A stretch of DNA of 64,000 nucleotides from Candidatus Methylomirabilales bacterium. GTDB taxonomy: Bacteria; Methylomirabilota; Methylomirabilia; Methylomirabilales; CSP1-5. The stretch spans positions 32,001 through 96,000 of the forward strand of contig JBHIAH010000002.1 of NCBI GenBank assembly GCA_046758505.1. Reading direction: 5' to 3'. Positions 20,624 to 58,257 of the stretch are shown here, one piece after another (the first letter of the stretch is position 1; each line of letters starts with the position of its first letter). The position numbers and the translations under genes are program-made. Under the pieces are notes generated by a model, which saw only the letters and a program-made list of their open reading frames with translations, was not told where the DNA came from and ran no database searches.

Positions 20624-20805
20624 ATTTCGAATTGCGAATTTCGGATTTCGGATTGAAATGCAGATCTCAGGTTCAGCACTTCGAAATCCGCAATCCCAAA
20701 TCCGAAATCCCGGAGGCGATTTGCTGATTGCTGACCGCTGACTGCTGACGGCCGACCGCTACGGGCTCGCAAGCTGTCTCATCGGTCGTCGGTCACCGGT
20801 CGTCG
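20624..20805. repeat. Two adjacent inverted arrays of heptamer repeats
   Basis: ATT[T/G]CG[A/G] x4 (20624-20651) pairs with CCGAAAT-like x4 (20681-20708). GCTGAC[C/T/G]-like x5 (20723-20757) pairs with TCGGTC[G/A]-like x3 (20782-20802). Confidence 0.8.
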
Positions 20806-22262
20806 CGGCGCGAAAGCGCCCGGCCGCGGGCCAGCCCATACAGCCACTCGTACTCCCTGGCAGCGTGCTCCCAAGAAAAGTGGCATGCCATGGCGTTCTG
20901 CATGAGGCACTTCCAGAGCTCCTTCCGGTGGAAAAGGGTGAGTGCCTCCCGGACGGCCTGCAAGAGATCCTCGGTCCCGGCCTGCCGGAAGGTAAACCCG
21001 TTTCCCGTGCGCGCCGCGGGATCAAAGGGGGTGATGGTGTCGCCCAGCCCCCCGGTGTCCCGGACGACGGGAATCGTGCCGTAGGCGAGACTGTACATCT
21101 GGGTCAGTCCGCAGGGTTCATACCGGGACGGCATGAGAAAGATGTCGGCCCCCGCCTCGATCTTATGACTCATGGCGACATCCAGGCCGATCCGCACTGC
21201 AAGCTTGGTGGGAAATTTCCGCTGCAACTCCTGGAGCCTCCGCTCGAGCTTCACGTCCCCCGTCCCCAGCAGGACCATCTGGAGATCGAGGCGCAACAGA
21301 TCCTCCCCCACCCCGGCGATGAGGTCGATGCCCTTCTGATCCACGAGCCGTGAGATCACGCCCACGAGGGGCAGCTCTGCCCGGGTCGGCAGTCCCATGA
21401 TCTCCTGAATGTCCACTTTACAGGCCGCCTTTCCCGTCAGATCGTCCGCGGAATACGCGGCCACGAGATAGGGATCGGCCCGAGGGTTCCACTCGTGATA
21501 GTCCACGCCATTCAGCACGCCGTAGAGATCCGCCGCCCGGCGCCGGGGGAGGTCCTGGAGGCCGCACCCGAACTCGGCCGTCTGAATCTCCTGGCTGTAT
21601 GTGCGACTGACGGTGCTGAGCAGGTCGGCGCACACCAGGCCGGCCTTCAGGAAATTCACCCTGCCCCAAAATTCCATCCCGTCGAGCGTAAACAGGGGAT
21701 CGGGCAGGCCGGTGAGGGGGAACACGTCGGCCGGAAAGAGTCCCTGGTATCCCAGGTTGTGGATCGTGAGCACGCTGGCGATATCCGCAAAAAAAAGATC
21801 CCTCCCGTAGACCGTCTTCAGGTAGGCCGGGATGAGGCTGCTCTGCCAGTCGTGGCAGTGGATCACGTCGGGCTTCCAGTTGAGGACCCTGACCGCTTCC
21901 AGCATGCCCCGGGAGAAAAAGATGAACCGTTCGGCGTTGTCGGGATAATCCTCTCCGTGCTCCTGGTACAAACCCTCCCGGTCATAAAATCGCTCATGAT
22001 CGATTAGGATGACGCGCACCCCCTCACTGTGTGTTTCCCAGAGGCAAGCTGCCTCCGTCCGATCTCCCAGGGGGACTTCGATTCCCTCCGGACGACGCGC
22101 CAGGGCATATTTCTCGGCGTCGATGGCCCCGTATTTGGGGAGAAACGCCGTCACCCGATGCCCCCGCCCCGCCAGGACGGCCGGAAGGGCCCCGGCGACG
22201 TCGGCCAATCCCCCCGTCTTGGCAAAGGGGGTCATCTCCGATGCAGCCGAGACGATCCGCAC
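20793..22262 (-). CDS. glgA: Glycogen synthase
   Basis: KTGGLADV, HCHDWQ, TIHNLGYQG and PSRYEPCGLTQM motifs; likely GTG start at 22262. Confidence 0.95.
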   Translation of the reverse strand: MRIVSAASEMTPFAKTGGLADVAGALPAVLAGRGHRVTAFLPKYGAIDAEKYALARRPEGIEVPLGDRTEAACLWETHSEGVRVILIDHERFYDREGLYQEHGEDYPDNAERFIFFSRGMLEAVRVLNWKPDVIHCHDWQSSLIPAYLKTVYGRDLFFADIASVLTIHNLGYQGLFPADVFPLTGLPDPLFTLDGMEFWGRVNFLKAGLVCADLLSTVSRTYSQEIQTAEFGCGLQDLPRRRAADLYGVLNGVDYHEWNPRADPYLVAAYSADDLTGKAACKVDIQEIMGLPTRAELPLVGVISRLVDQKGIDLIAGVGEDLLRLDLQMVLLGTGDVKLERRLQELQRKFPTKLAVRIGLDVAMSHKIEAGADIFLMPSRYEPCGLTQMYSLAYGTIPVVRDTGGLGDTITPFDPAARTGNGFTFRQAGTEDLLQAVREALTLFHRKELWKCLMQNAMACHFSWEHAAREYEWLYGLARGRALSRRDDR

Positions 22263-22322
22263 GCTCTTCTCCGGAAAAAAGGAACGGGGATCACACTTCC
22301 GATCCCCGTCCGACAATGCTGC

Positions 22323-22366: not shown

Positions 22367-22383
22367 TGCCTATGCAGTGGGCA
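22367..22383 (+). promoter_or_regulatory. NtrC-box-like enhancer site
   Basis: 17-bp TGCCTATGCAGTGGGCA (TGC-N11-GCA) about 120 bp upstream of the sigma54 site. Confidence 0.35.
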
Positions 22384-22500
22384 CCCCGTTCTCGCGGGCG
22401 GGCTCTGTGCTCTCTTTTTAGGCGATTTCGGTCCGGCCTGGTTCGCCCCCATTCGCACCTTTCTCCGTAATAGCAGCGAGTTACCGTTCTTCACCTCCAC

Positions 22501-22516
22501 TGGCATGGCGGATGCT
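22501..22516 (+). promoter_or_regulatory. Sigma54 (-24/-12) promoter of the amt operon
   Basis: TGGCAT-GGCGG-ATGCT with GG-N10-GC spacing, about 90 bp before the amt start. Confidence 0.6.
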
Positions 22517-22607
22517 TCTCTTCGCGCCGACCACAAGCGACCGTTGTGCGATGGTGGGGGAATCCTTGATTGAACGCCTCAGGGGAACGTAGAAGGGAGG
22601 AGAAACT

Positions 22608-24497
22608 GTGACGCGGAAGAGAGCGCTCTACAGCGTGGGTCTTGCCGCTCTGGTGGTGATTCTGGTTCCGGGGATCGCCCTCGCCCAGCAGGCGGCGCCC
22701 ACCATCGACACCCTGCTGAAGGACGTGACCAGCCTCAAGGTCGACTCCAAGGTGGCCATGGACACGGTGTGGACCCTGATCACCGCCTTTCTCGTCATGT
22801 TCATGGCCGCAGGGTTCGCCCTGCTCGAGTCCGGATTTTGCCGTTCGAAAAACACCGCCAACATCCTGGCGAAGAATTTTGTGGTGTATGCCGTCACGGG
22901 CATCGCCTTCTTAGTCATCGGCTGGGGGATTATGTTCGGCGACGGCACCGGCTTTATGGGTCTGAAGGGGCTCTGGTTCCTCAGCGGTCCCGACAACAGC
23001 CCGGCCACCGGAGACGCCTATAAGGGGGTCTACAGCTCTATCAACTGGACCGGGATCCCGCTCGAGGCCAAGTTCCTCTTCCAGATGGTCTTTGCCGCGA
23101 CCGCCGCGACGATCGTCTCGGGGGCCGTGGCCGAGCGGGTCAAGTTCGGCGCCTTCTTTCTCTTTTCCTTTCTCATCGGCGGCCTGCTCTACCCGATCAC
23201 CGGTCACTGGATCTGGGGAGGGGGCTGGCTCGCCGAGCGCGGGATGTGGGACTTTGCGGGTTCCACCGTGGTCCACTCGGTCGGCGGCTGGGCCGCCCTC
23301 GCCGGCGCCATCATGCTGGGACCGCGCATCGGCAAGTATACGAAGGACGGACGGATCAACCCCATCCCCGGCCACAGCCTCACCTCCGCGACGCTTGGCG
23401 TCTTTATCCTCTGGTTTGGCTGGTTCGGATTCAACCCGGGCAGCACTATGGGGGCGGATTGGGGGGCCATCGGCCACATCGCCGCCACCACGAACACCGC
23501 CGCGGCCGCGGGGGTGATCAGCGCCACGTTCACCGCCTGGGTCCTCCTCGGCAAGCCGGACCTCACCATGGCCCTGAACGGGGGGGTAGCCGGCCTGGTG
23601 GCGATTACGGCGCCGTGTGCCTTCGTCAGCCTGGGAAGCTCGCTGGCGATCGGCCTTGTGGCCGGGATCCTCGTGGTCCTGTCGGTCCTCTTCTTCGACC
23701 GCATCAAGGTGGACGATCCGGTGGGCGCGATCTCTGCCCACCTGGCGTGCGGGGCATGGGGCACTCTCGCCCTTGGGCTCTTTGCGCAGGACAAGTTCAT
23801 GCCGGGCACCACCGGCAACGGCCTGTTCTTCGGGGGCGGTTCGGGGCTCTTCCAGGCGCAGCTCATCGGGGTGCTCGCTGTGGGCGCATTCATCTTCCCG
23901 GCCTCCATGGTCGGCTGGGGGCTCCTGAAGGGATTCATGGGCATTCGGGTTGGCCCGGAGGAGGAGATGGAGGGCCTGGACATCAACGAGCACGGACTTC
24001 TCGCCTATCCGGACTTTCAGATCGCCACGGCGGCTCGCATGCCCCGGGGTGCGGTGACGGCGGCAGCGCCGGCGACACCGGCCCCCGAGGCGGCGGAGCC
24101 CGTGCGGCGCCCCGCCGCGGCCTTTGCCGGTGCGGGCGGCGGAGTGCGGACCCCGCCCCGCCCCGGTGCGTCACGCACGCCACCCGGCCCGGGCCACGCC
24201 CCCCCCGCCCGCGGAGCGCCTGTCGCCGCGGCCGGACCCGCCCTCAAAGAACAACCGTTCAGGATCGTGGTCCGGGGGGTGGAGAAGAAGGCCCTGCGGG
24301 AGCTATGGCAGCGTCTCTGCTACGAATATCCCCACAACACGCCACAGGACTTCAACGAGATCTACGGATACGTGCAGAGCTTTCGGGACGATGCCTTCTC
24401 TTTCAAGGAGGGGGATCCGAAGCAGTTCCGAGATACGATCGAAAACCTTTTGTACATCCACGGCATCGAAGGGGCCGTGGTCACGGCAGAGCGCTGA
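22608..24497 (+). CDS. amtB: Ammonium transporter (Amt) with Pro/Ala linker and an extra ~80-aa C-terminal domain
   Basis: GFALLESG, FQMVFA...IVSGAVAER, DFAGSTVVH, WFGFNPGS and DDPVGAISAH (twin His); signal peptide; 629 aa. Confidence 0.93.
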   Translation: MTRKRALYSVGLAALVVILVPGIALAQQAAPTIDTLLKDVTSLKVDSKVAMDTVWTLITAFLVMFMAAGFALLESGFCRSKNTANILAKNFVVYAVTGIAFLVIGWGIMFGDGTGFMGLKGLWFLSGPDNSPATGDAYKGVYSSINWTGIPLEAKFLFQMVFAATAATIVSGAVAERVKFGAFFLFSFLIGGLLYPITGHWIWGGGWLAERGMWDFAGSTVVHSVGGWAALAGAIMLGPRIGKYTKDGRINPIPGHSLTSATLGVFILWFGWFGFNPGSTMGADWGAIGHIAATTNTAAAAGVISATFTAWVLLGKPDLTMALNGGVAGLVAITAPCAFVSLGSSLAIGLVAGILVVLSVLFFDRIKVDDPVGAISAHLACGAWGTLALGLFAQDKFMPGTTGNGLFFGGGSGLFQAQLIGVLAVGAFIFPASMVGWGLLKGFMGIRVGPEEEMEGLDINEHGLLAYPDFQIATAARMPRGAVTAAAPATPAPEAAEPVRRPAAAFAGAGGGVRTPPRPGASRTPPGPGHAPPARGAPVAAAGPALKEQPFRIVVRGVEKKALRELWQRLCYEYPHNTPQDFNEIYGYVQSFRDDAFSFKEGDPKQFRDTIENLLYIHGIEGAVVTAER

Positions 24498-24528
24498 TCC
24501 CGAAAGAGAGGCCGGGGAGGAGAGAGAA

Positions 24529-26139
24529 ATGATTGGATGGATCATTCTGATCGGTATCCTCGCAGCAGTGATCATCGCGGCATTTACCGCCTGGTACGTC
24601 AAGACGCCGGTAAACAACGCCTTCATCCGGACCGGCTTCGGTGGCAAGAAGGTGGTCATCGACGGCGGCGCGGTCGTATTGCCCTGGGTCCAAAGCATTC
24701 AGTGGATTTCCCTCGAGACCTTCAAGCTCCAGGTCTTCAAGGCGAAGAAAGAGGCCTTCATCACCAAGGACCGCCTGCGGGTGGACCTCGGGGCTGAATT
24801 CTACGTGAAGATCTCAGCCGACCCGGAGAGCATCGAACGGGCCTCCCGCAGCTTGGGGGATAAGTCCTTCAGCGCCGAGGGGATCCAGTCCCTCGTGGAG
24901 GAGAAGCTGGTCTCGGCGCTGCGGTCGGCGGCAGCCCAGATGGAGATGGTTTATATGCACGAGAATCGCCGCGGCTTCGCCCTCAGCGTCATGGAACATC
25001 TTGGAGAACCGTTGATGCTCAACGGGCTTGGACTCGAGGATGTTTCAATCTTCCACTTCGACCAGACCGACCGGGCCCAGCTCGATCCTCACAACATCTT
25101 CGACGCCGAGGGCCTCCGCCAGATCGCCGCCCAGGTCTCCCAGCGCAACCGAGAGCGGAATGAGATCGAACGGAACACCGAGGTGGGCATCAAGCGCAAG
25201 GATGTGGAGGCGGTCAAGCTCAAACTCTCGCTCGACCAGGATCGGGAATTCGCCGAGGCCGAGCAGATGCGCCAGGTGGACACCAACCGGTCCCTCCAGA
25301 AGGCCGAGACCGAACAGTACAAGTTCGAGCAGGACCGGCGAACCCGGGAGGCGGAAATCGCCAAGCAGCGTGCCGTCCGGGAGGCAGAGATCGTGCAGGA
25401 GAAGGCGGTGCGCGAGGCAGAGATCCGCCGCGAAGCGTACCTGATTCAGCAGATGGAGCTCCGCGAGACGGCCGAGGTGGAAAAGGAGCGGGTGGTCGAG
25501 GAGACAAAACGGGCCAAAGAGATCGCCATCCTGGTCAAGGAGCGACAGCGGATCGAGGAGGAGAAGCGGCGGCTGGAGGCCGAGGCCGTCAAGGAGCTGT
25601 CGGCCCAGGAGGTGGTGACGGTGGCCGAAAAGGCCTCGGCCGAGCGCCAGAAGGTCATCGCCCTCATCCAGGCCCTCCGGGAAGTCGAGGTGGCCGAGCA
25701 AAAAGCCCGCGCGGTCGAACGACTGGCGCTCTCCAAACAGCGGGAGGGCGAGGCCGACGCAGCCGCCCGTTTGAAGATGGTAGAGACCGAGAACCACCTC
25801 CAGGACAAGGTCATTCAGCGGGATGTCCTGCTGCGCTTTATCGACAGGGCGCCCCAGATCTTGGGCGAGATGATGGCCCCGGCCCGGCAGATCGACAGCA
25901 TCAAGGTCTTGGACGTTCGGGGCTTGGGCGGCAACGGCGAGGGGGCAGGCCCAGACGTCTCCGGCATCAGTCGCGTGGTGAACTCCTTCCTCAACGCCGG
26001 GGCCGCGCTGCCGCTCCTCAGGGAATTTCTGGACTTCGCCAAGATGGATCCGGAAGGCATGCTCAAGAAGGTGGCGGCGCAGATCCCCGGAGCCAAGGAG
26101 GCCGTCGAGCCGCCATCAGCGAAGGGATCGGGGAAATAA
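24529..26139 (+). CDS. SPFH/flotillin-family protein (YqiK-like)
   Basis: N-terminal TM; FIRTGFGG...VIDGG, ITKDRLRVD and NIFDAEGL motifs; long E/R/A coiled coil; ARQIDSIKVL; ATG at 24529 follows GGAGG. Confidence 0.88.
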   Translation: MIGWIILIGILAAVIIAAFTAWYVKTPVNNAFIRTGFGGKKVVIDGGAVVLPWVQSIQWISLETFKLQVFKAKKEAFITKDRLRVDLGAEFYVKISADPESIERASRSLGDKSFSAEGIQSLVEEKLVSALRSAAAQMEMVYMHENRRGFALSVMEHLGEPLMLNGLGLEDVSIFHFDQTDRAQLDPHNIFDAEGLRQIAAQVSQRNRERNEIERNTEVGIKRKDVEAVKLKLSLDQDREFAEAEQMRQVDTNRSLQKAETEQYKFEQDRRTREAEIAKQRAVREAEIVQEKAVREAEIRREAYLIQQMELRETAEVEKERVVEETKRAKEIAILVKERQRIEEEKRRLEAEAVKELSAQEVVTVAEKASAERQKVIALIQALREVEVAEQKARAVERLALSKQREGEADAAARLKMVETENHLQDKVIQRDVLLRFIDRAPQILGEMMAPARQIDSIKVLDVRGLGGNGEGAGPDVSGISRVVNSFLNAGAALPLLREFLDFAKMDPEGMLKKVAAQIPGAKEAVEPPSAKGSGK

Positions 26140-26143
26140 GGTC

Positions 26144-26767
26144 GTGTCGTATCGCCTCCTGCTCATAGAGGAGAGCTCCTCTGCCCTGACCTTCCTCCAG
26201 GAGACGCTCCGACGGCTCGGCTATGCGGTGGTCGGCGAGGCTACCCATGGCCAGCAGGGACTCCAACTGACCCGAACCCTCCAACCCGATCTGATATTTT
26301 TGGCGGTGGATCTGCAGGGGGTCTGTGGCCTCACCGTCGCAACCCAGATCATGAAGGAGACCCCCACACCCATCATCCTCCTGGCCTGCACCCGGGATGC
26401 CACCACAATCCGTCGGGCCACCCAGGCGGGGGTGATGGCCTACCTGATCAAGCCAATACGTGGGCACGAGCTCCAGGCCACCATCGAGCTGGCCATTGCC
26501 AGGTTCCGGGAGTTCATGACGCTCTGGAAGGACAACCAGCACCTGCGGAGGGCCTTGGAGGCGCGCAAGGCGATCGAACGCGCCAAGGGGTTGCTCATGG
26601 CCCGCCACGGGATGACCGAGGCAGAGGCCTTCAGCTCGATCCAGCGACAGAGCATGAAGACTCGAACCCCCATGGAACAAGTCGCCGAGGCCATTCTGGT
26701 CGGGGAGGCAGTCGCGGCGGCTGCAACGGATCCACGTCCCGCGGCATCTTCGCAACCGGGACCCTAG
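26144..26767 (+). CDS. ANTAR-domain RNA-binding antiterminator with pseudo-receiver domain (AmiR/NasT-like)
   Basis: ANTAR motif LEARKAIERAKGLLM...EAEAF...QSM. The receiver has Ala54 where the phospho-Asp is expected (PDLIFLA). Confidence 0.9.
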   Translation: MSYRLLLIEESSSALTFLQETLRRLGYAVVGEATHGQQGLQLTRTLQPDLIFLAVDLQGVCGLTVATQIMKETPTPIILLACTRDATTIRRATQAGVMAYLIKPIRGHELQATIELAIARFREFMTLWKDNQHLRRALEARKAIERAKGLLMARHGMTEAEAFSSIQRQSMKTRTPMEQVAEAILVGEAVAAAATDPRPAASSQPGP

Positions 26768-26889
26768 CGGAGCCAGCACAGAGCTCTGACCGTCACGAGA
26801 GGGAAACACCCGACGAATCCGAAAGACTTCGATGGCACCGGTGAGGGTCTCGCGTGCGCCGGTGCCCCGACACGCGCGGAGGTTCCGGT

Positions 26890-26929
26890 CGCTGCAACGG
26901 CGCAGCGGCGGGAGAGGCAAGGGCGCCTC
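26890..26929 (+). promoter_or_regulatory. ANTAR target RNA (dual hexaloop hairpins)
   Basis: P1 CGCTGC-AACGGC-GCAGCG, 6-nt linker, P2 GAGGC-AAGGGC-GCCTC. Both loops have A1/G4 and a C-G closing pair. Confidence 0.88.
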
Positions 26930-26955
26930 ACAGAGGAGGCGCCCTTGTGTTTTTT
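26918..26955 (+). terminator. Intrinsic terminator overlapping ANTAR hairpin P2
   Basis: CAAGGGCGCCTC-ACAGAG-GAGGCGCCCTTG (12-bp perfect stem) followed by TGTTTTTT. Confidence 0.88.
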
Positions 26956-27025
26956 CGTGACACAGACCGAGATGACCGGCACCGTGGGAAGCGAGTACAA
27001 CCTGTACGAAAAAGGAGACGGTGAC

Positions 27026-27919
27026 ATGCCACACACACGGTGGAGACGCATGGCTCTCGTGGCTAGTGCGGTGGGGCTAGCCGGCTTTTTCTATGGGACG
27101 GCGGCGGTCCAGGCGGGAGAAGCCACAGGGCAAAACACGGGGAGGATCTCGCTCAATGCCGGGGTGGATTTTCCCACAGCCTACTTCTTCCGCGGCATCC
27201 TGCAGGAGGACGAGGACTTCATCGCCCAACCATTCGGGGAAATCACGGTTAACCTGTATGAAGGGACGGGAGGACTGACCAGCGTCAGCGCGACGCTGGG
27301 CTTGTGGAATAGCCTGCACTCAGGCCCGACCGGCGGAGGCGGGCCGACCGACAACCCGAAGATATGGTACGAAGCCGATGCGTATGGGGGACTGACGTTC
27401 GGGCTGTTCGAAAACTGGGAAGCGGGAGTGACCTACATCGCCTACACCAGCCCCAACGATTCCTTTGACACGGTTCAAGAGGTGTACCTGAGCCTCGGCT
27501 ATGACGACAGCGACCTGTTGGGTCCCTTTGCGCTGTCTCCGCACGTCCTTGTCGCCTTCGAGTTCGATAATCAGGCGGATGGGGGGAGCGACGAGGGCAT
27601 TTATGTGGAGCTGGGTGTCGAACCAGGCCTCACCCTCATCAAAAGCGAGCAATTCCCGGTGACCCTCTCATTTCCGATCACCCTCGGCTTGAGCGCCGAT
27701 GACTATTACGAGTTCGGCACTGGCGACGATAGCACCTTCGGGTACTTTGACGGGGGTATCGTCCTGAGCATGCCGTTGGGGTTCATTCCCGCCGCCTTCG
27801 GCACCTGGGAGATCAATGCCGGGGTACACTTCCTCGCCCTCGGGGACAACCTCGAAACGGTGAACAGTGGCGACGCCTTTGAGGCCATCGGCACGTTCGG
27901 CATCAGCCTGGCCTACTGA
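27026..27919 (+). CDS. TorF-like putative outer-membrane porin
   Basis: Signal peptide ending AVQA; AYFFRGI...Q and YEADAYGG motifs; alternating beta-strand pattern; C-terminal aromatic residue (GISLAY); AAGGAG RBS. Confidence 0.72.
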   Translation: MPHTRWRRMALVASAVGLAGFFYGTAAVQAGEATGQNTGRISLNAGVDFPTAYFFRGILQEDEDFIAQPFGEITVNLYEGTGGLTSVSATLGLWNSLHSGPTGGGGPTDNPKIWYEADAYGGLTFGLFENWEAGVTYIAYTSPNDSFDTVQEVYLSLGYDDSDLLGPFALSPHVLVAFEFDNQADGGSDEGIYVELGVEPGLTLIKSEQFPVTLSFPITLGLSADDYYEFGTGDDSTFGYFDGGIVLSMPLGFIPAAFGTWEINAGVHFLALGDNLETVNSGDAFEAIGTFGISLAY

Positions 27920-28083: not shown

Positions 28084-28161
28084 TGGCGGGGCCGACGGGA
28101 CTTGAACCCGCGATCTCCGGCTTGACAGGCCGGCGTGTTAACCAGGCTACACCACGGCCCC
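28084..28161 (-). tRNA. tRNA-Asp(GUC)
   Basis: Cloverleaf with acceptor GGGGCCG/CGGCCCC, anticodon arm CCGGC-CTGTCAA-GCCGG, T loop TTCAAGT and encoded CCA. Confidence 0.97.
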
Positions 28162-28186: not shown

Positions 28187-28249
28187 GAACCCGCGATCTT
28201 CCCGATTGCCCATCGGGACGGGGTCACCAGGCTACACCACGGCCCCGCA
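28187..28249 (-). pseudogene. Degenerate partial copy of tRNA-Asp
   Basis: 24-nt identity 28226-28249 vs 28141-28164 and 13-nt identity 28187-28199 vs 28104-28116. The anticodon arm is replaced and the 3' acceptor strand is absent. Confidence 0.75.
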
Positions 28250-28267
28250 GAAGGGAACGACTGTAAA

Positions 28268-57711: not shown

Positions 57712-58257
57712 CTAACCGGTGAAGCCCTCGTCCAGTTCGACGCCGAGGCCGTCGGCCACCCGATCCTGGTGGTTGAAGAAGCCGGCGATCAACGTCAGCG
57801 TGAGAATCTCTTCGTCCGAGAGCCCAGCGGCTCGTACTCGCTCAATGTCCTCACTCACGATCTTACTCGCATCCCGCGTGAGCCGTTCCGCGTGTTCGAG
57901 GATCACACGTGTCTTGCGGTCGAGAGCCGCTTGTCGGTAATCCTTCTTGATCTGGGCAGTCAGCTCATGACTGCGTGTCTCGCGACGGAGAAACTCTCCG
58001 TGAGCCTCTATTCAATAATGGCAGTTGTTGAGCTTGGAGACTAGCACCGCGATCATTTCCCTCTGGGCCCGAGTGAGTCCGGACGGACCGAACATGAGGG
58101 TCTCGTAGAGCGGCTGCATGGCTTGCAGGACGTCAGGCCTGAGGCTGTAGACCTTCAGGATGTTGGGCACGAAGCCCATGCGCCCCTTGATCCCAGCGTA
58201 GAACTCGCCCAGTGCCCCTGTGGCTTCCTGCTCCTCGACTGTCTTGATCCACGCCAT
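57712..58257 (-). CDS. AhpD/carboxymuconolactone-decarboxylase-like peroxidase-related selenoprotein, 181 aa, C79-x-x-U82
   Basis: ORFs 58012..58257 and 57712..57906 join in frame across TGA 58012-58014: REMIAVLVSKLNNCHY-U-IEAHGEFLRR...FFNHQDRVADGLG. Confidence 0.9.
57985..58001 (-). promoter_or_regulatory. Putative SECIS of the AhpD-like gene
   Basis: 10 nt after UGA: ACGGAG-AGUUU-CUCCGU, a perfect stem. Confidence 0.7.

Follow-up and report, generated by a model that had tools for sequence, protein, structure and literature searches.

Organization of the locus

The stretch of DNA analyzed here, the window, comprises 64,000 nucleotides of contig JBHIAH010000002.1 from a Candidatus Methylomirabilales genome assembly (GCA_046758505.1) that is 96.8% complete. 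It contains, on the plus strand, a gene for an ammonium transporter, amt (22608..24497, 629 residues), followed by a YqiK-like flotillin gene (24529..26139, 536 residues), the gene of a REC-ANTAR antiterminator with a pseudo-receiver in which Asp is replaced by Ala (26144..26767, 207 residues), and a gene for a predicted outer-membrane β-barrel protein, a distant TorF/Gcw_chp relative (27026..27919, 297 residues). Curated Pfam cut-offs are passed by Ammonium_transp in the first protein, by Band_7 and Flot in the second, and by Response_reg and ANTAR in the third. The gaps measure 31 bp between amt and the flotillin gene and 4 bp between the flotillin and ANTAR genes; parts and gaps thus lie where an earlier note, made from the sequence alone, had placed them. 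That note read the four genes as a single nitrogen-sensing module. The comparison with related genomes shows that the locus consists of two separable modules, one of promoter, attenuator, ANTAR protein and porin, the other of a C-terminal Amt domain (the tail) and the flotillin, and that the tail and the flotillin are inherited together.

A single amt and a single ANTAR gene were detected in the genome. No glnK/PII gene and no kinase gene lies within the locus, as the note had observed; this does not extend to the genome, which contains two PII genes, one before glnA and one before a glnE-like gene (names from translations), and an NtrC-like gene adjoining a kinase-sized gene. The best model for the NtrC-like protein is TIGR01818, with a score of 524 bits that falls below the cut-off of 558.6. 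A sigma54 gene is also present.

The Amt transporter and its C-terminal domain

The transporter core spans residues 54–467 and exceeds the cut-offs of PF00909 (398 versus 23.2 bits) and TIGR00836 (408.6 versus 343.3 bits). Residues F162, W203, D215, H223, W272, F275, S279 and H378 are present here and shared by all 17 of the 17 homologues, and include a Phe gate (F162/F275), a Trp/Ser binding site (W203/S279) and a twin-His pair (H223/H378). Their equivalence to Escherichia coli AmtB positions was assigned by motif mapping, partly after PMC10433425, and is in part presumed.

The core is followed by a Pro/Ala/Gly-rich linker of 77 residues (469–545; 24012..24242, plus strand; 24 Ala, 16 Pro and 10 Gly) and by the tail, an unnamed domain of 84 residues (546–629; 24243..24494, plus strand). 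The model of the tail, with a predicted local distance difference test (pLDDT) value of 92, adopts a β-α-α-β-β-α-β ferredoxin-like sandwich, and residues W567, C571, F582, Y586, F599 and G602 are conserved. The domain matches no family in Pfam or NCBIfam, and Atlas features gave no usable match. A structural search of 48,161 chains returned generic ferredoxin-like folds with a best Z of 6.7 (root mean square deviation 3.5, 79 aligned residues); none of these chains reached Z 8, and Foldseek gave no match at E ≤ 0.001. A catalytic signaling domain of the Ks-Amt5 type is absent from the protein, the tail of which models as a small α/β sandwich.

When 1.84 billion representatives were searched with a profile of the tail, 53 distant matches were obtained, 19 of which carry a Pfam Amt match, while most of the remainder are fragments that end in the tail domain; two matches (P0031 and P0036) were set aside as repeat artefacts. 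The Atlas structure search ranked first an 810-residue, planctomycete-rich Amt cluster (TM score 0.71). A genome scan with the planctomycete-type alignment found 58 loci, nearly all titled Planctomycetota and all 58 Amt fusions, and this type matches the original tail profile with a probability of 98.8%. The tail represents an unnamed Amt domain family that extends to Planctomycetota. The two types differ in the distance from the core motif to the tail, which is 63–113 residues in the long-linker type of the window and 47–56 in the planctomycete type (median 49, n = 41 measurable). Three planctomycete loci (L100, L120 and L130) have two nearby tail-bearing Amts of different clades.

Some close relatives carry the same linker and tail, about 68% identical, on the other, AmtB-type Amt clade (L035:7522-9291 in genome G002, and proteins P0006, P0011, P0017 and P0019); both Amts of G002 are tailed, and its flotillin is single. 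The amt gene of genome G009 (L041:4229-5390) is broken by a mid-gene frameshift, either real or an assembly error.

Co-inheritance of the tail and the flotillin

The flotillin consists of an N-terminal hydrophobic helix, an SPFH domain (residues 25–178) and a Flot domain (residues 389–501), with scores of 50.7 against a cut-off of 23.6 bits for PF01145 and 69.2 against 27 bits for PF15975. It scores far below the cut-off of the FloT equivalog NF058507 (44.6 versus 700 bits). An SPFH-NfeD operon is likewise not found here, as the three NfeD matches of the genome lie on contigs C6, C10 and C15 and none in the locus. Among its relatives with solved structure is Flotillin-1, and by analogy with these and with described SPFH cages the protein may form a ring- or cage-like oligomer (PMC13086221).

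The tail occurs in 8 of the 251 genomes of the phylum, and the same flotillin subfamily is encoded directly downstream in all eight. Among the 66 genomes of families f1–f7, those with a PF15975 match are precisely the seven that bear the tail, and in G228, which belongs to another order, the tail-flotillin pair is repeated on the other Amt clade. Conversely, the Amt cores of G009 and G012 are 87–89% identical to that of the window and have the same promoter, and neither the tail nor the flotillin was found there. Four of the eight tail-flotillin loci have no ANTAR gene; three of these genomes, 94–98% complete, have only Asp-bearing ANTARs or none that could be found, and G002 has kept the amt-tail-flotillin-porin order and lost the ANTAR gene and the RNA switch jointly. 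The other flotillins of the phylum are 32–35% identical and belong to an unrelated operon in all six cases read. That operon (L246–L251) is itself conserved, with a gene for a 276-residue protein upstream in 6 of 6. Downstream, where the region reaches that far, are genes that we take, from their translations, to encode small START-like proteins and an ABC-ATPase fusion.

Outside the phylum, 11 of 55 divergent tail proteins match one of 118 flotillins by the exact size of the longest contig (null mean 0.22, maximum 3). Names among all the flotillins found by searching include Binatia, Tectomicrobia and Deltaproteobacteria; a metagenome scan with the flotillin gave four loci, all close relatives. 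The pair persists at identities of 35–49% for the tail and 53–65% for the flotillin. Trees and distances were computed for 19 pairs (7 from genomes and 12 size-matched; G023 was left out as partial). The 19 Amt cores form two deep clades (100/100) that are followed by neither the tail tree nor the flotillin tree; both clades have acquired the tail-flotillin cassette. Distances of tails correlate with those of flotillins (rho 0.78 for 11 reduced pairs and 0.90 for all 19) more strongly than with those of their own cores (0.32 and 0.56, respectively). We infer from the joint inheritance that the two partners bind each other.

Several points weigh against a flotillin that works with the tail. The sequences behind the rho values are related and not independent of one another, and common ancestry, like the side-by-side position of the genes, can inflate these values; the resolution of the tail tree is poor, with 2 of 10 branches well supported. 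Size matching of longest contigs is indirect evidence that leaves 44 of the 55 tail proteins unmatched. The second tail-Amt of G002 has no adjoining flotillin, so that the pairing holds for eight of nine tail loci and not for nine of nine. None of the 58 planctomycete-type tail loci contains a flotillin gene (in four of them the sequence stops no more than about 550 bp from the tail), and in 50 planctomycete-type genomes a search for SPFH among up to 29 candidates per genome gave one weak match (1/50); the tail therefore does not need a flotillin. Finally, since the two lie side by side, recombination alone could hold them together.

A rival reading is a purely positional link, in which the tail would be an accessory domain of Amts in general, for example for PII docking or metabolite binding, and the flotillin a co-regulated passenger, remodeling the membrane during nitrogen starvation without touching the Amt. 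The planctomycete-type loci, with a PII gene downstream in 46 of 58, fit this alternative, as do the ferredoxin-like fold of the tail, a fold also seen in ACT, CutA and PII-type modules, and the general co-segregation of neighboring DNA. We nevertheless regard it as unlikely, because the flotillin subfamily accompanies a tail-Amt in all eight genomes read directly, the pair is kept at the sequence divergence given above, and the type linked to the flotillin has the longer linker. The related idea that the tail replaces GlnK was rejected, given that PII genes lie next to the tail-Amts of G019, G023 and G228 and to those of the same 46 planctomycete-type loci.

The ANTAR protein belongs to a clade without a phospho-acceptor

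The ANTAR domain scores 78.1 bits against the PF03861 cut-off of 27.3. In the receiver domain the phospho-acceptor Asp is replaced by Ala (LIFLAVD, versus LVIMDV in PDB entry 1s8n and LVLMDI in 6wsh); together with the lack of a kinase in the locus, this sets the protein apart from two-component systems such as GnfK/GnfR, PdtaS/PdtaR and EutW/EutV. The replacement is a property of the clade, being found in 30 of the 30 best ANTAR loci among the 251 genomes. Of these loci, 23 adjoin amt, glnA or glnK and have no flotillin gene, four adjoin a flotillin gene and three have neither within 1.5 kb; the other 26 of the 30 genomes have no detectable tail. The pseudo-receiver therefore occurs in most genomes without tail or flotillin. 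Another order of the phylum has the arrangement glnK-amt-glnA-ANTAR, with urea or nitrate genes coming after it (names from translations). Both Asp-bearing ANTAR loci that were scanned have a HisKA_2 kinase gene upstream. In G036, three more ANTAR-domain matches (C1:1458157, 1468474 and 1471512) lie no more than 25 kb from the one linked to amt.

The locus contains no NasS/AmiC-type sensor, as had been noted, and no cytoplasmic NasS- or AmiC-like partner was recognized in the genome, where a partner encoded elsewhere is conceivable. The NMT1_2 and Peripla_BP_5 matches of the genome that were inspected belong to ABC-transporter operons or have signal-like N-termini.

Under the proposal of the earlier note, the tail and/or the flotillin retains at the membrane the ANTAR protein, whose release depends on ammonium status. 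The tight spacing of the genes (31 and 4 bp), the order amt-tail, flotillin, ANTAR in four genomes of two families, and the lack of a kinase or cytoplasmic partner agree with such sequestration, and NasT and AmiR are known to be held by partners (PMC3795266). In addition, the flotillin-adjacent ANTARs of genus g1 (G000, G010 and G003) no longer show the AVGLP and Thr/Ser motifs of the clade, so that their partner could have changed; this divergence counts against the reading favored below. The ANTAR protein of G019, also flotillin-adjacent, has kept both motifs. Sequestration is nonetheless very unlikely, given that 26 of the 30 Asp-to-Ala ANTAR genomes lack a tail, that the ANTAR gene is missing from half of the tail-flotillin loci, and that no ANTAR domain was matched in any of the 58 planctomycete-type tail loci. 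The amt-SPFH-ANTAR-porin set falls into the two modules described above, with a flotillin gene next to only 4 of 30 Asp-to-Ala ANTARs, and the idea of a single four-gene sensing module is not supported.

The RNA switch and the porin

The leader of the porin gene contains the complete ANTAR RNA switch announced in the note. Hairpin P1 (26888..26909, plus strand) has an 8-bp stem and the loop AACGGC, and hairpin P2, a GnfR-type site (26914..26929, plus strand), has a 5-bp stem and the loop AAGGGC; both hexaloops have A1 and G4. P2 is overlapped by an intrinsic terminator (26917..26955, plus strand) of 13 pairs (26917–26948) followed by a U-run, whose fold is markedly stable (z-score −6.5, equalled by 0 of 200 shuffles). 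Twin A1/G4 hexaloop hairpins with P2 over a terminator are the hallmark of ANTAR-system RNAs (PMC3369931), and P2 is identical in 13 of 14 bases to the GnfR-bound CAGGCAAGGGCGCC of Geobacter (PMC2995071). A further hairpin at about 26833–26868 was rejected as not significant (z-score −0.26).

With loose criteria, a scan of the genome turned up 588 candidate twin hairpins, of which 14 have an overlapping terminator; a stricter clade pattern is fitted in this assembly by the porin leader alone. Among relatives, 18 of 24 pattern matches, all intergenic, were kept for alignment, and six inside or antisense to genes were dropped. A terminator-like stem of varied sequence is present in all 18 (−21 to −32 kcal/mol), and a canonical P1 (A1/G4 and the 3-bp rule) in 10 of the 18, no more; the conservation of P2 is circular, because P2 served as the search pattern. 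The genes 3′ of these elements encode two porin families, glnK-amt, nitrite reductase and nitrate-transport proteins. ANTAR RNAs also precede glnK at L039:5625 (G012) and L040:2779 (G023) with no Asp-to-Ala ANTAR gene adjoining; since the only ANTAR found in G012 (96% complete) is Asp-bearing, targets may be common to the two ANTAR clades.

The porin gene starts with an ATG preceded by a ribosome-binding site, and its product has a signal-like N-terminus and ends in Tyr. The TorF-like character ascribed to it holds as a distant relationship and not as family membership, as TIGR02001 matches with 22.5 bits (E 7e-5), below the cut-off of 47.15. No Pfam match was obtained, PF09694/TIGR02001 remaining below threshold. 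An Atlas feature score of 0.97 links the protein to a cluster of which 47% of the members contain Gcw_chp, and a single-sequence structure model has a pLDDT of 33, too low to judge a β-barrel fold.

The promoter

Upstream of amt lie a predicted sigma54 −24/−12 element (22500..22516, plus strand) and two enhancer-protein dyads, dyad 1 of NtrC/GnfM type, TGC-N11-GCA (22367..22383, plus strand), and dyad 2, TGC-N11-GCG (22408..22424, plus strand). Because sigma54 patterns in the window are no more frequent than chance (197 matches versus 208 expected, with 3 mismatches), conservation across relatives was used, and 10 upstream regions of related loci were aligned. The letters CTGGCAT and TGCT of the sigma54 element, TGC and GCA of dyad 1, and TGC and GC of dyad 2 are invariant in 10 of 10, which bears out the sigma54-like promoter of the note at the level of sequence. 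The site thus combines GG/GC at −24/−12 with conserved upstream dyads, as anticipated for an NtrC/GnfM-sigma54 promoter. The glnB-glnA leader of the same genome has the same layout, including two such dyads upstream, and GnfM sites in Geobacter have the same dyad form (PMC2995071, Table S4). On the basis of the invariant letters, the glnB-glnA layout and the GnfM-form dyads, the main nitrogen control is most simply attributed to NtrC/sigma54.

A GAF-sigma54 activator gene adjoins glnK/amt in G019 (L038:11299-12888), G022 (L047:3947-5530) and G037 (L052:4912-6702), and the L038 copy is above the TIGR01817 NifA cut-off. No full-length counterpart was found in the genome of the window.

A probable composite operon with two add-ons

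The locus is probably a composite operon for nitrogen scavenging that carries two add-ons independent of each other. Under nitrogen limitation, an NtrC/GnfM-type activator bound at the two dyads would fire the sigma54 promoter, as the conserved sequence suggests, and amt, the flotillin gene and the ANTAR gene would be transcribed. The terminator before the porin gene would then halt transcription unless an ANTAR dimer binds P1 and P2, which would provide the porin with a second, later gate; the RNA structure emerges from folding and conservation, and its function is assigned after EutV and GnfR. A nitrogen-regulated operon in which a kinase-less ANTAR gates porin transcription, as the note proposed, is in this respect the reading that the sequence most likely supports.

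The input of the ANTAR protein would be kinase-free, most likely soluble and common to the whole clade. Binding of PII or glutamine synthetase is the leading, if tentative, candidate; next comes the possibility that there is no input beyond the NtrC-driven abundance of the protein itself, and a small molecule is a distinctly unlikely third.

The second add-on would serve the Amt and not the ANTAR protein. The Amt would still be a transporter, with the long flexible linker and the tail joining its trimer to a flotillin oligomer that would cluster, stabilize or shut the channel. A more specific version, which we consider rather doubtful, is that the long-linker tail docks or senses and anchors the Amt trimers on or within a cage formed by the dedicated flotillin subfamily. 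This would create an uptake microdomain that is clustered or shut by nitrogen status, a cassette spread across several lineages and both Amt clades that in the lineage of the window may also have captured an orphan pseudo-receiver ANTAR.

Instead of importing ammonium, the Amt could be a transceptor, a sensor whose output domain, here the tail, would signal to the flotillin or another partner in the manner of Ks-Amt5. The C-terminal fusion and the best PDB matches, the Amt entries 6eu6 and 8qj3/8qpf, which we take to be signaling Amts, are in line with this. Ks-Amt5 is non-transporting despite canonical residues, so pore residues alone do not prove transport (PMC10433425). A sensor is all the same very unlikely, because this is the sole amt found in a nearly complete genome and is preceded by an NtrC-type promoter, the closely similar cores of G009 and G012 have no tail, and the tail matches no catalytic family.

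The new parts of the locus are the Amt-tail and flotillin cassette and the orphan ANTAR clade, whereas the promoter and the attenuator are of known kinds. The co-inheritance of tail and flotillin suggests an undescribed way of organizing bacterial ammonium uptake. Bacterial flotillins mostly have no known client, and their knockouts often have a near-silent phenotype (PMC13086221); a flotillin subfamily that shares its inheritance with a single transporter and a single small domain provides a definable client, docking module and input. If the proposal is correct, Amt would be controlled by a route beside GlnK plugging, parallel to AMT1;3/Flot1 of plants. The phylum-wide ANTAR clade, which has neither a phospho-Asp nor a linked partner, offers a clean system in which to study how signals from PII or glutamine synthetase get to RNA antiterminators. 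The claim that the arrangement is undescribed is borne out for the tail and flotillin as a conserved pairing: searches of the open-access literature, which covered mostly titles, found no bacterial Amt-flotillin pair or cassette and no description of this tail domain, and the word flotillin does not occur in a 2023 Amt review.

Genomic surroundings

The operon is embedded in glycogen and trehalose metabolism genes (window positions 20793–22316 and 28293–50137). The divergent upstream gene presumably encodes a glycogen synthase, and the downstream genes GlgE, TreY, GlgX, TreZ, GlgB and TreS-like and GlgC-like proteins. The glycogen synthase neighbor is kept in G005, G006 and G007. A tRNA with anticodon GUC lies on the minus strand at 28087–28161. 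Positions 28188–28250 repeat two pieces of it about 85 bp onward, with a short inverted repeat in place of the anticodon arm, and are a candidate tRNA-like remnant or integration scar. At 57712–58257, two short neighboring open reading frames of 64 and 81 residues presumably correspond to the halves of a peroxidase/carboxymuconolactone-decarboxylase-like protein, with a possible in-frame stop or recoding.

Comparison with known systems

The logic of promoter and attenuator has already been described in Geobacter, where the GnfL/GnfM and GnfK/GnfR cascade combines a sigma54 promoter, paired TGC-N11-GCA activator sites and a REC-ANTAR protein as in the window, and where GnfR targets include an operon of a hypothetical gene, glnK and amtB (PMC2995071). 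GnfR requires phosphorylation by GnfK, whereas the ANTAR protein of the window has Ala for Asp and no linked kinase; the parts of that account examined mention neither a flotillin nor an Amt tail (PMC2995071).

The systems NasS-NasT and AmiC-AmiR share with the window a REC-ANTAR protein without a linked histidine kinase and a twin-hairpin A1/G4 leader (PMC3795266, PMC10783516). The resemblance extends to the relatives of the window, whose RNA elements precede nitrite reductase and nitrate genes; both systems differ from it in their cytoplasmic partner, as nothing NrtA-like or AmiC-like is present in the locus or was recognized in the genome. ANTAR control of nitrogen genes, including those of PII and ammonium transporters, is also described for NitR of Clostridium (PMC6316151) and for EutV/PdtaR (PMC3369931), and the frequent position of the ANTAR clade after glnA invites comparison with these. 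EutV and PdtaR (PDB codes 6wsh and 1s8n) retain the Asp, in contrast to the window protein.

The Amt core has all the pore residues, as in GlnK-AmtB and Ks-Amt5, and Ks-Amt5 also has a cytoplasmic C-terminal extension (PMC10433425). Unlike that of Ks-Amt5, the extension in the window is small and non-catalytic, is carried on a long linker and matches no library entry, and the locus differs from GlnK-AmtB in that glnK lies outside it. In Arabidopsis, AMT1;3/Flot1 nanodomains tie a flotillin to an ammonium transporter and to its ammonium-dependent down-regulation (PMC8644385); this involves endocytosis, with no fusion or operon, and serves as an analogy only. Among bacterial systems, FloT, FloA-NfeD, YbbK-YbbJ and the HflKC-FtsH cage share the SPFH and Flot architecture and provide the precedent of an SPFH cage around a client membrane protein (PMC13086221). 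Compared with these SPFH operons, the flotillin of the window belongs to a distinct subfamily, and the gene upstream of it is amt in place of nfeD.

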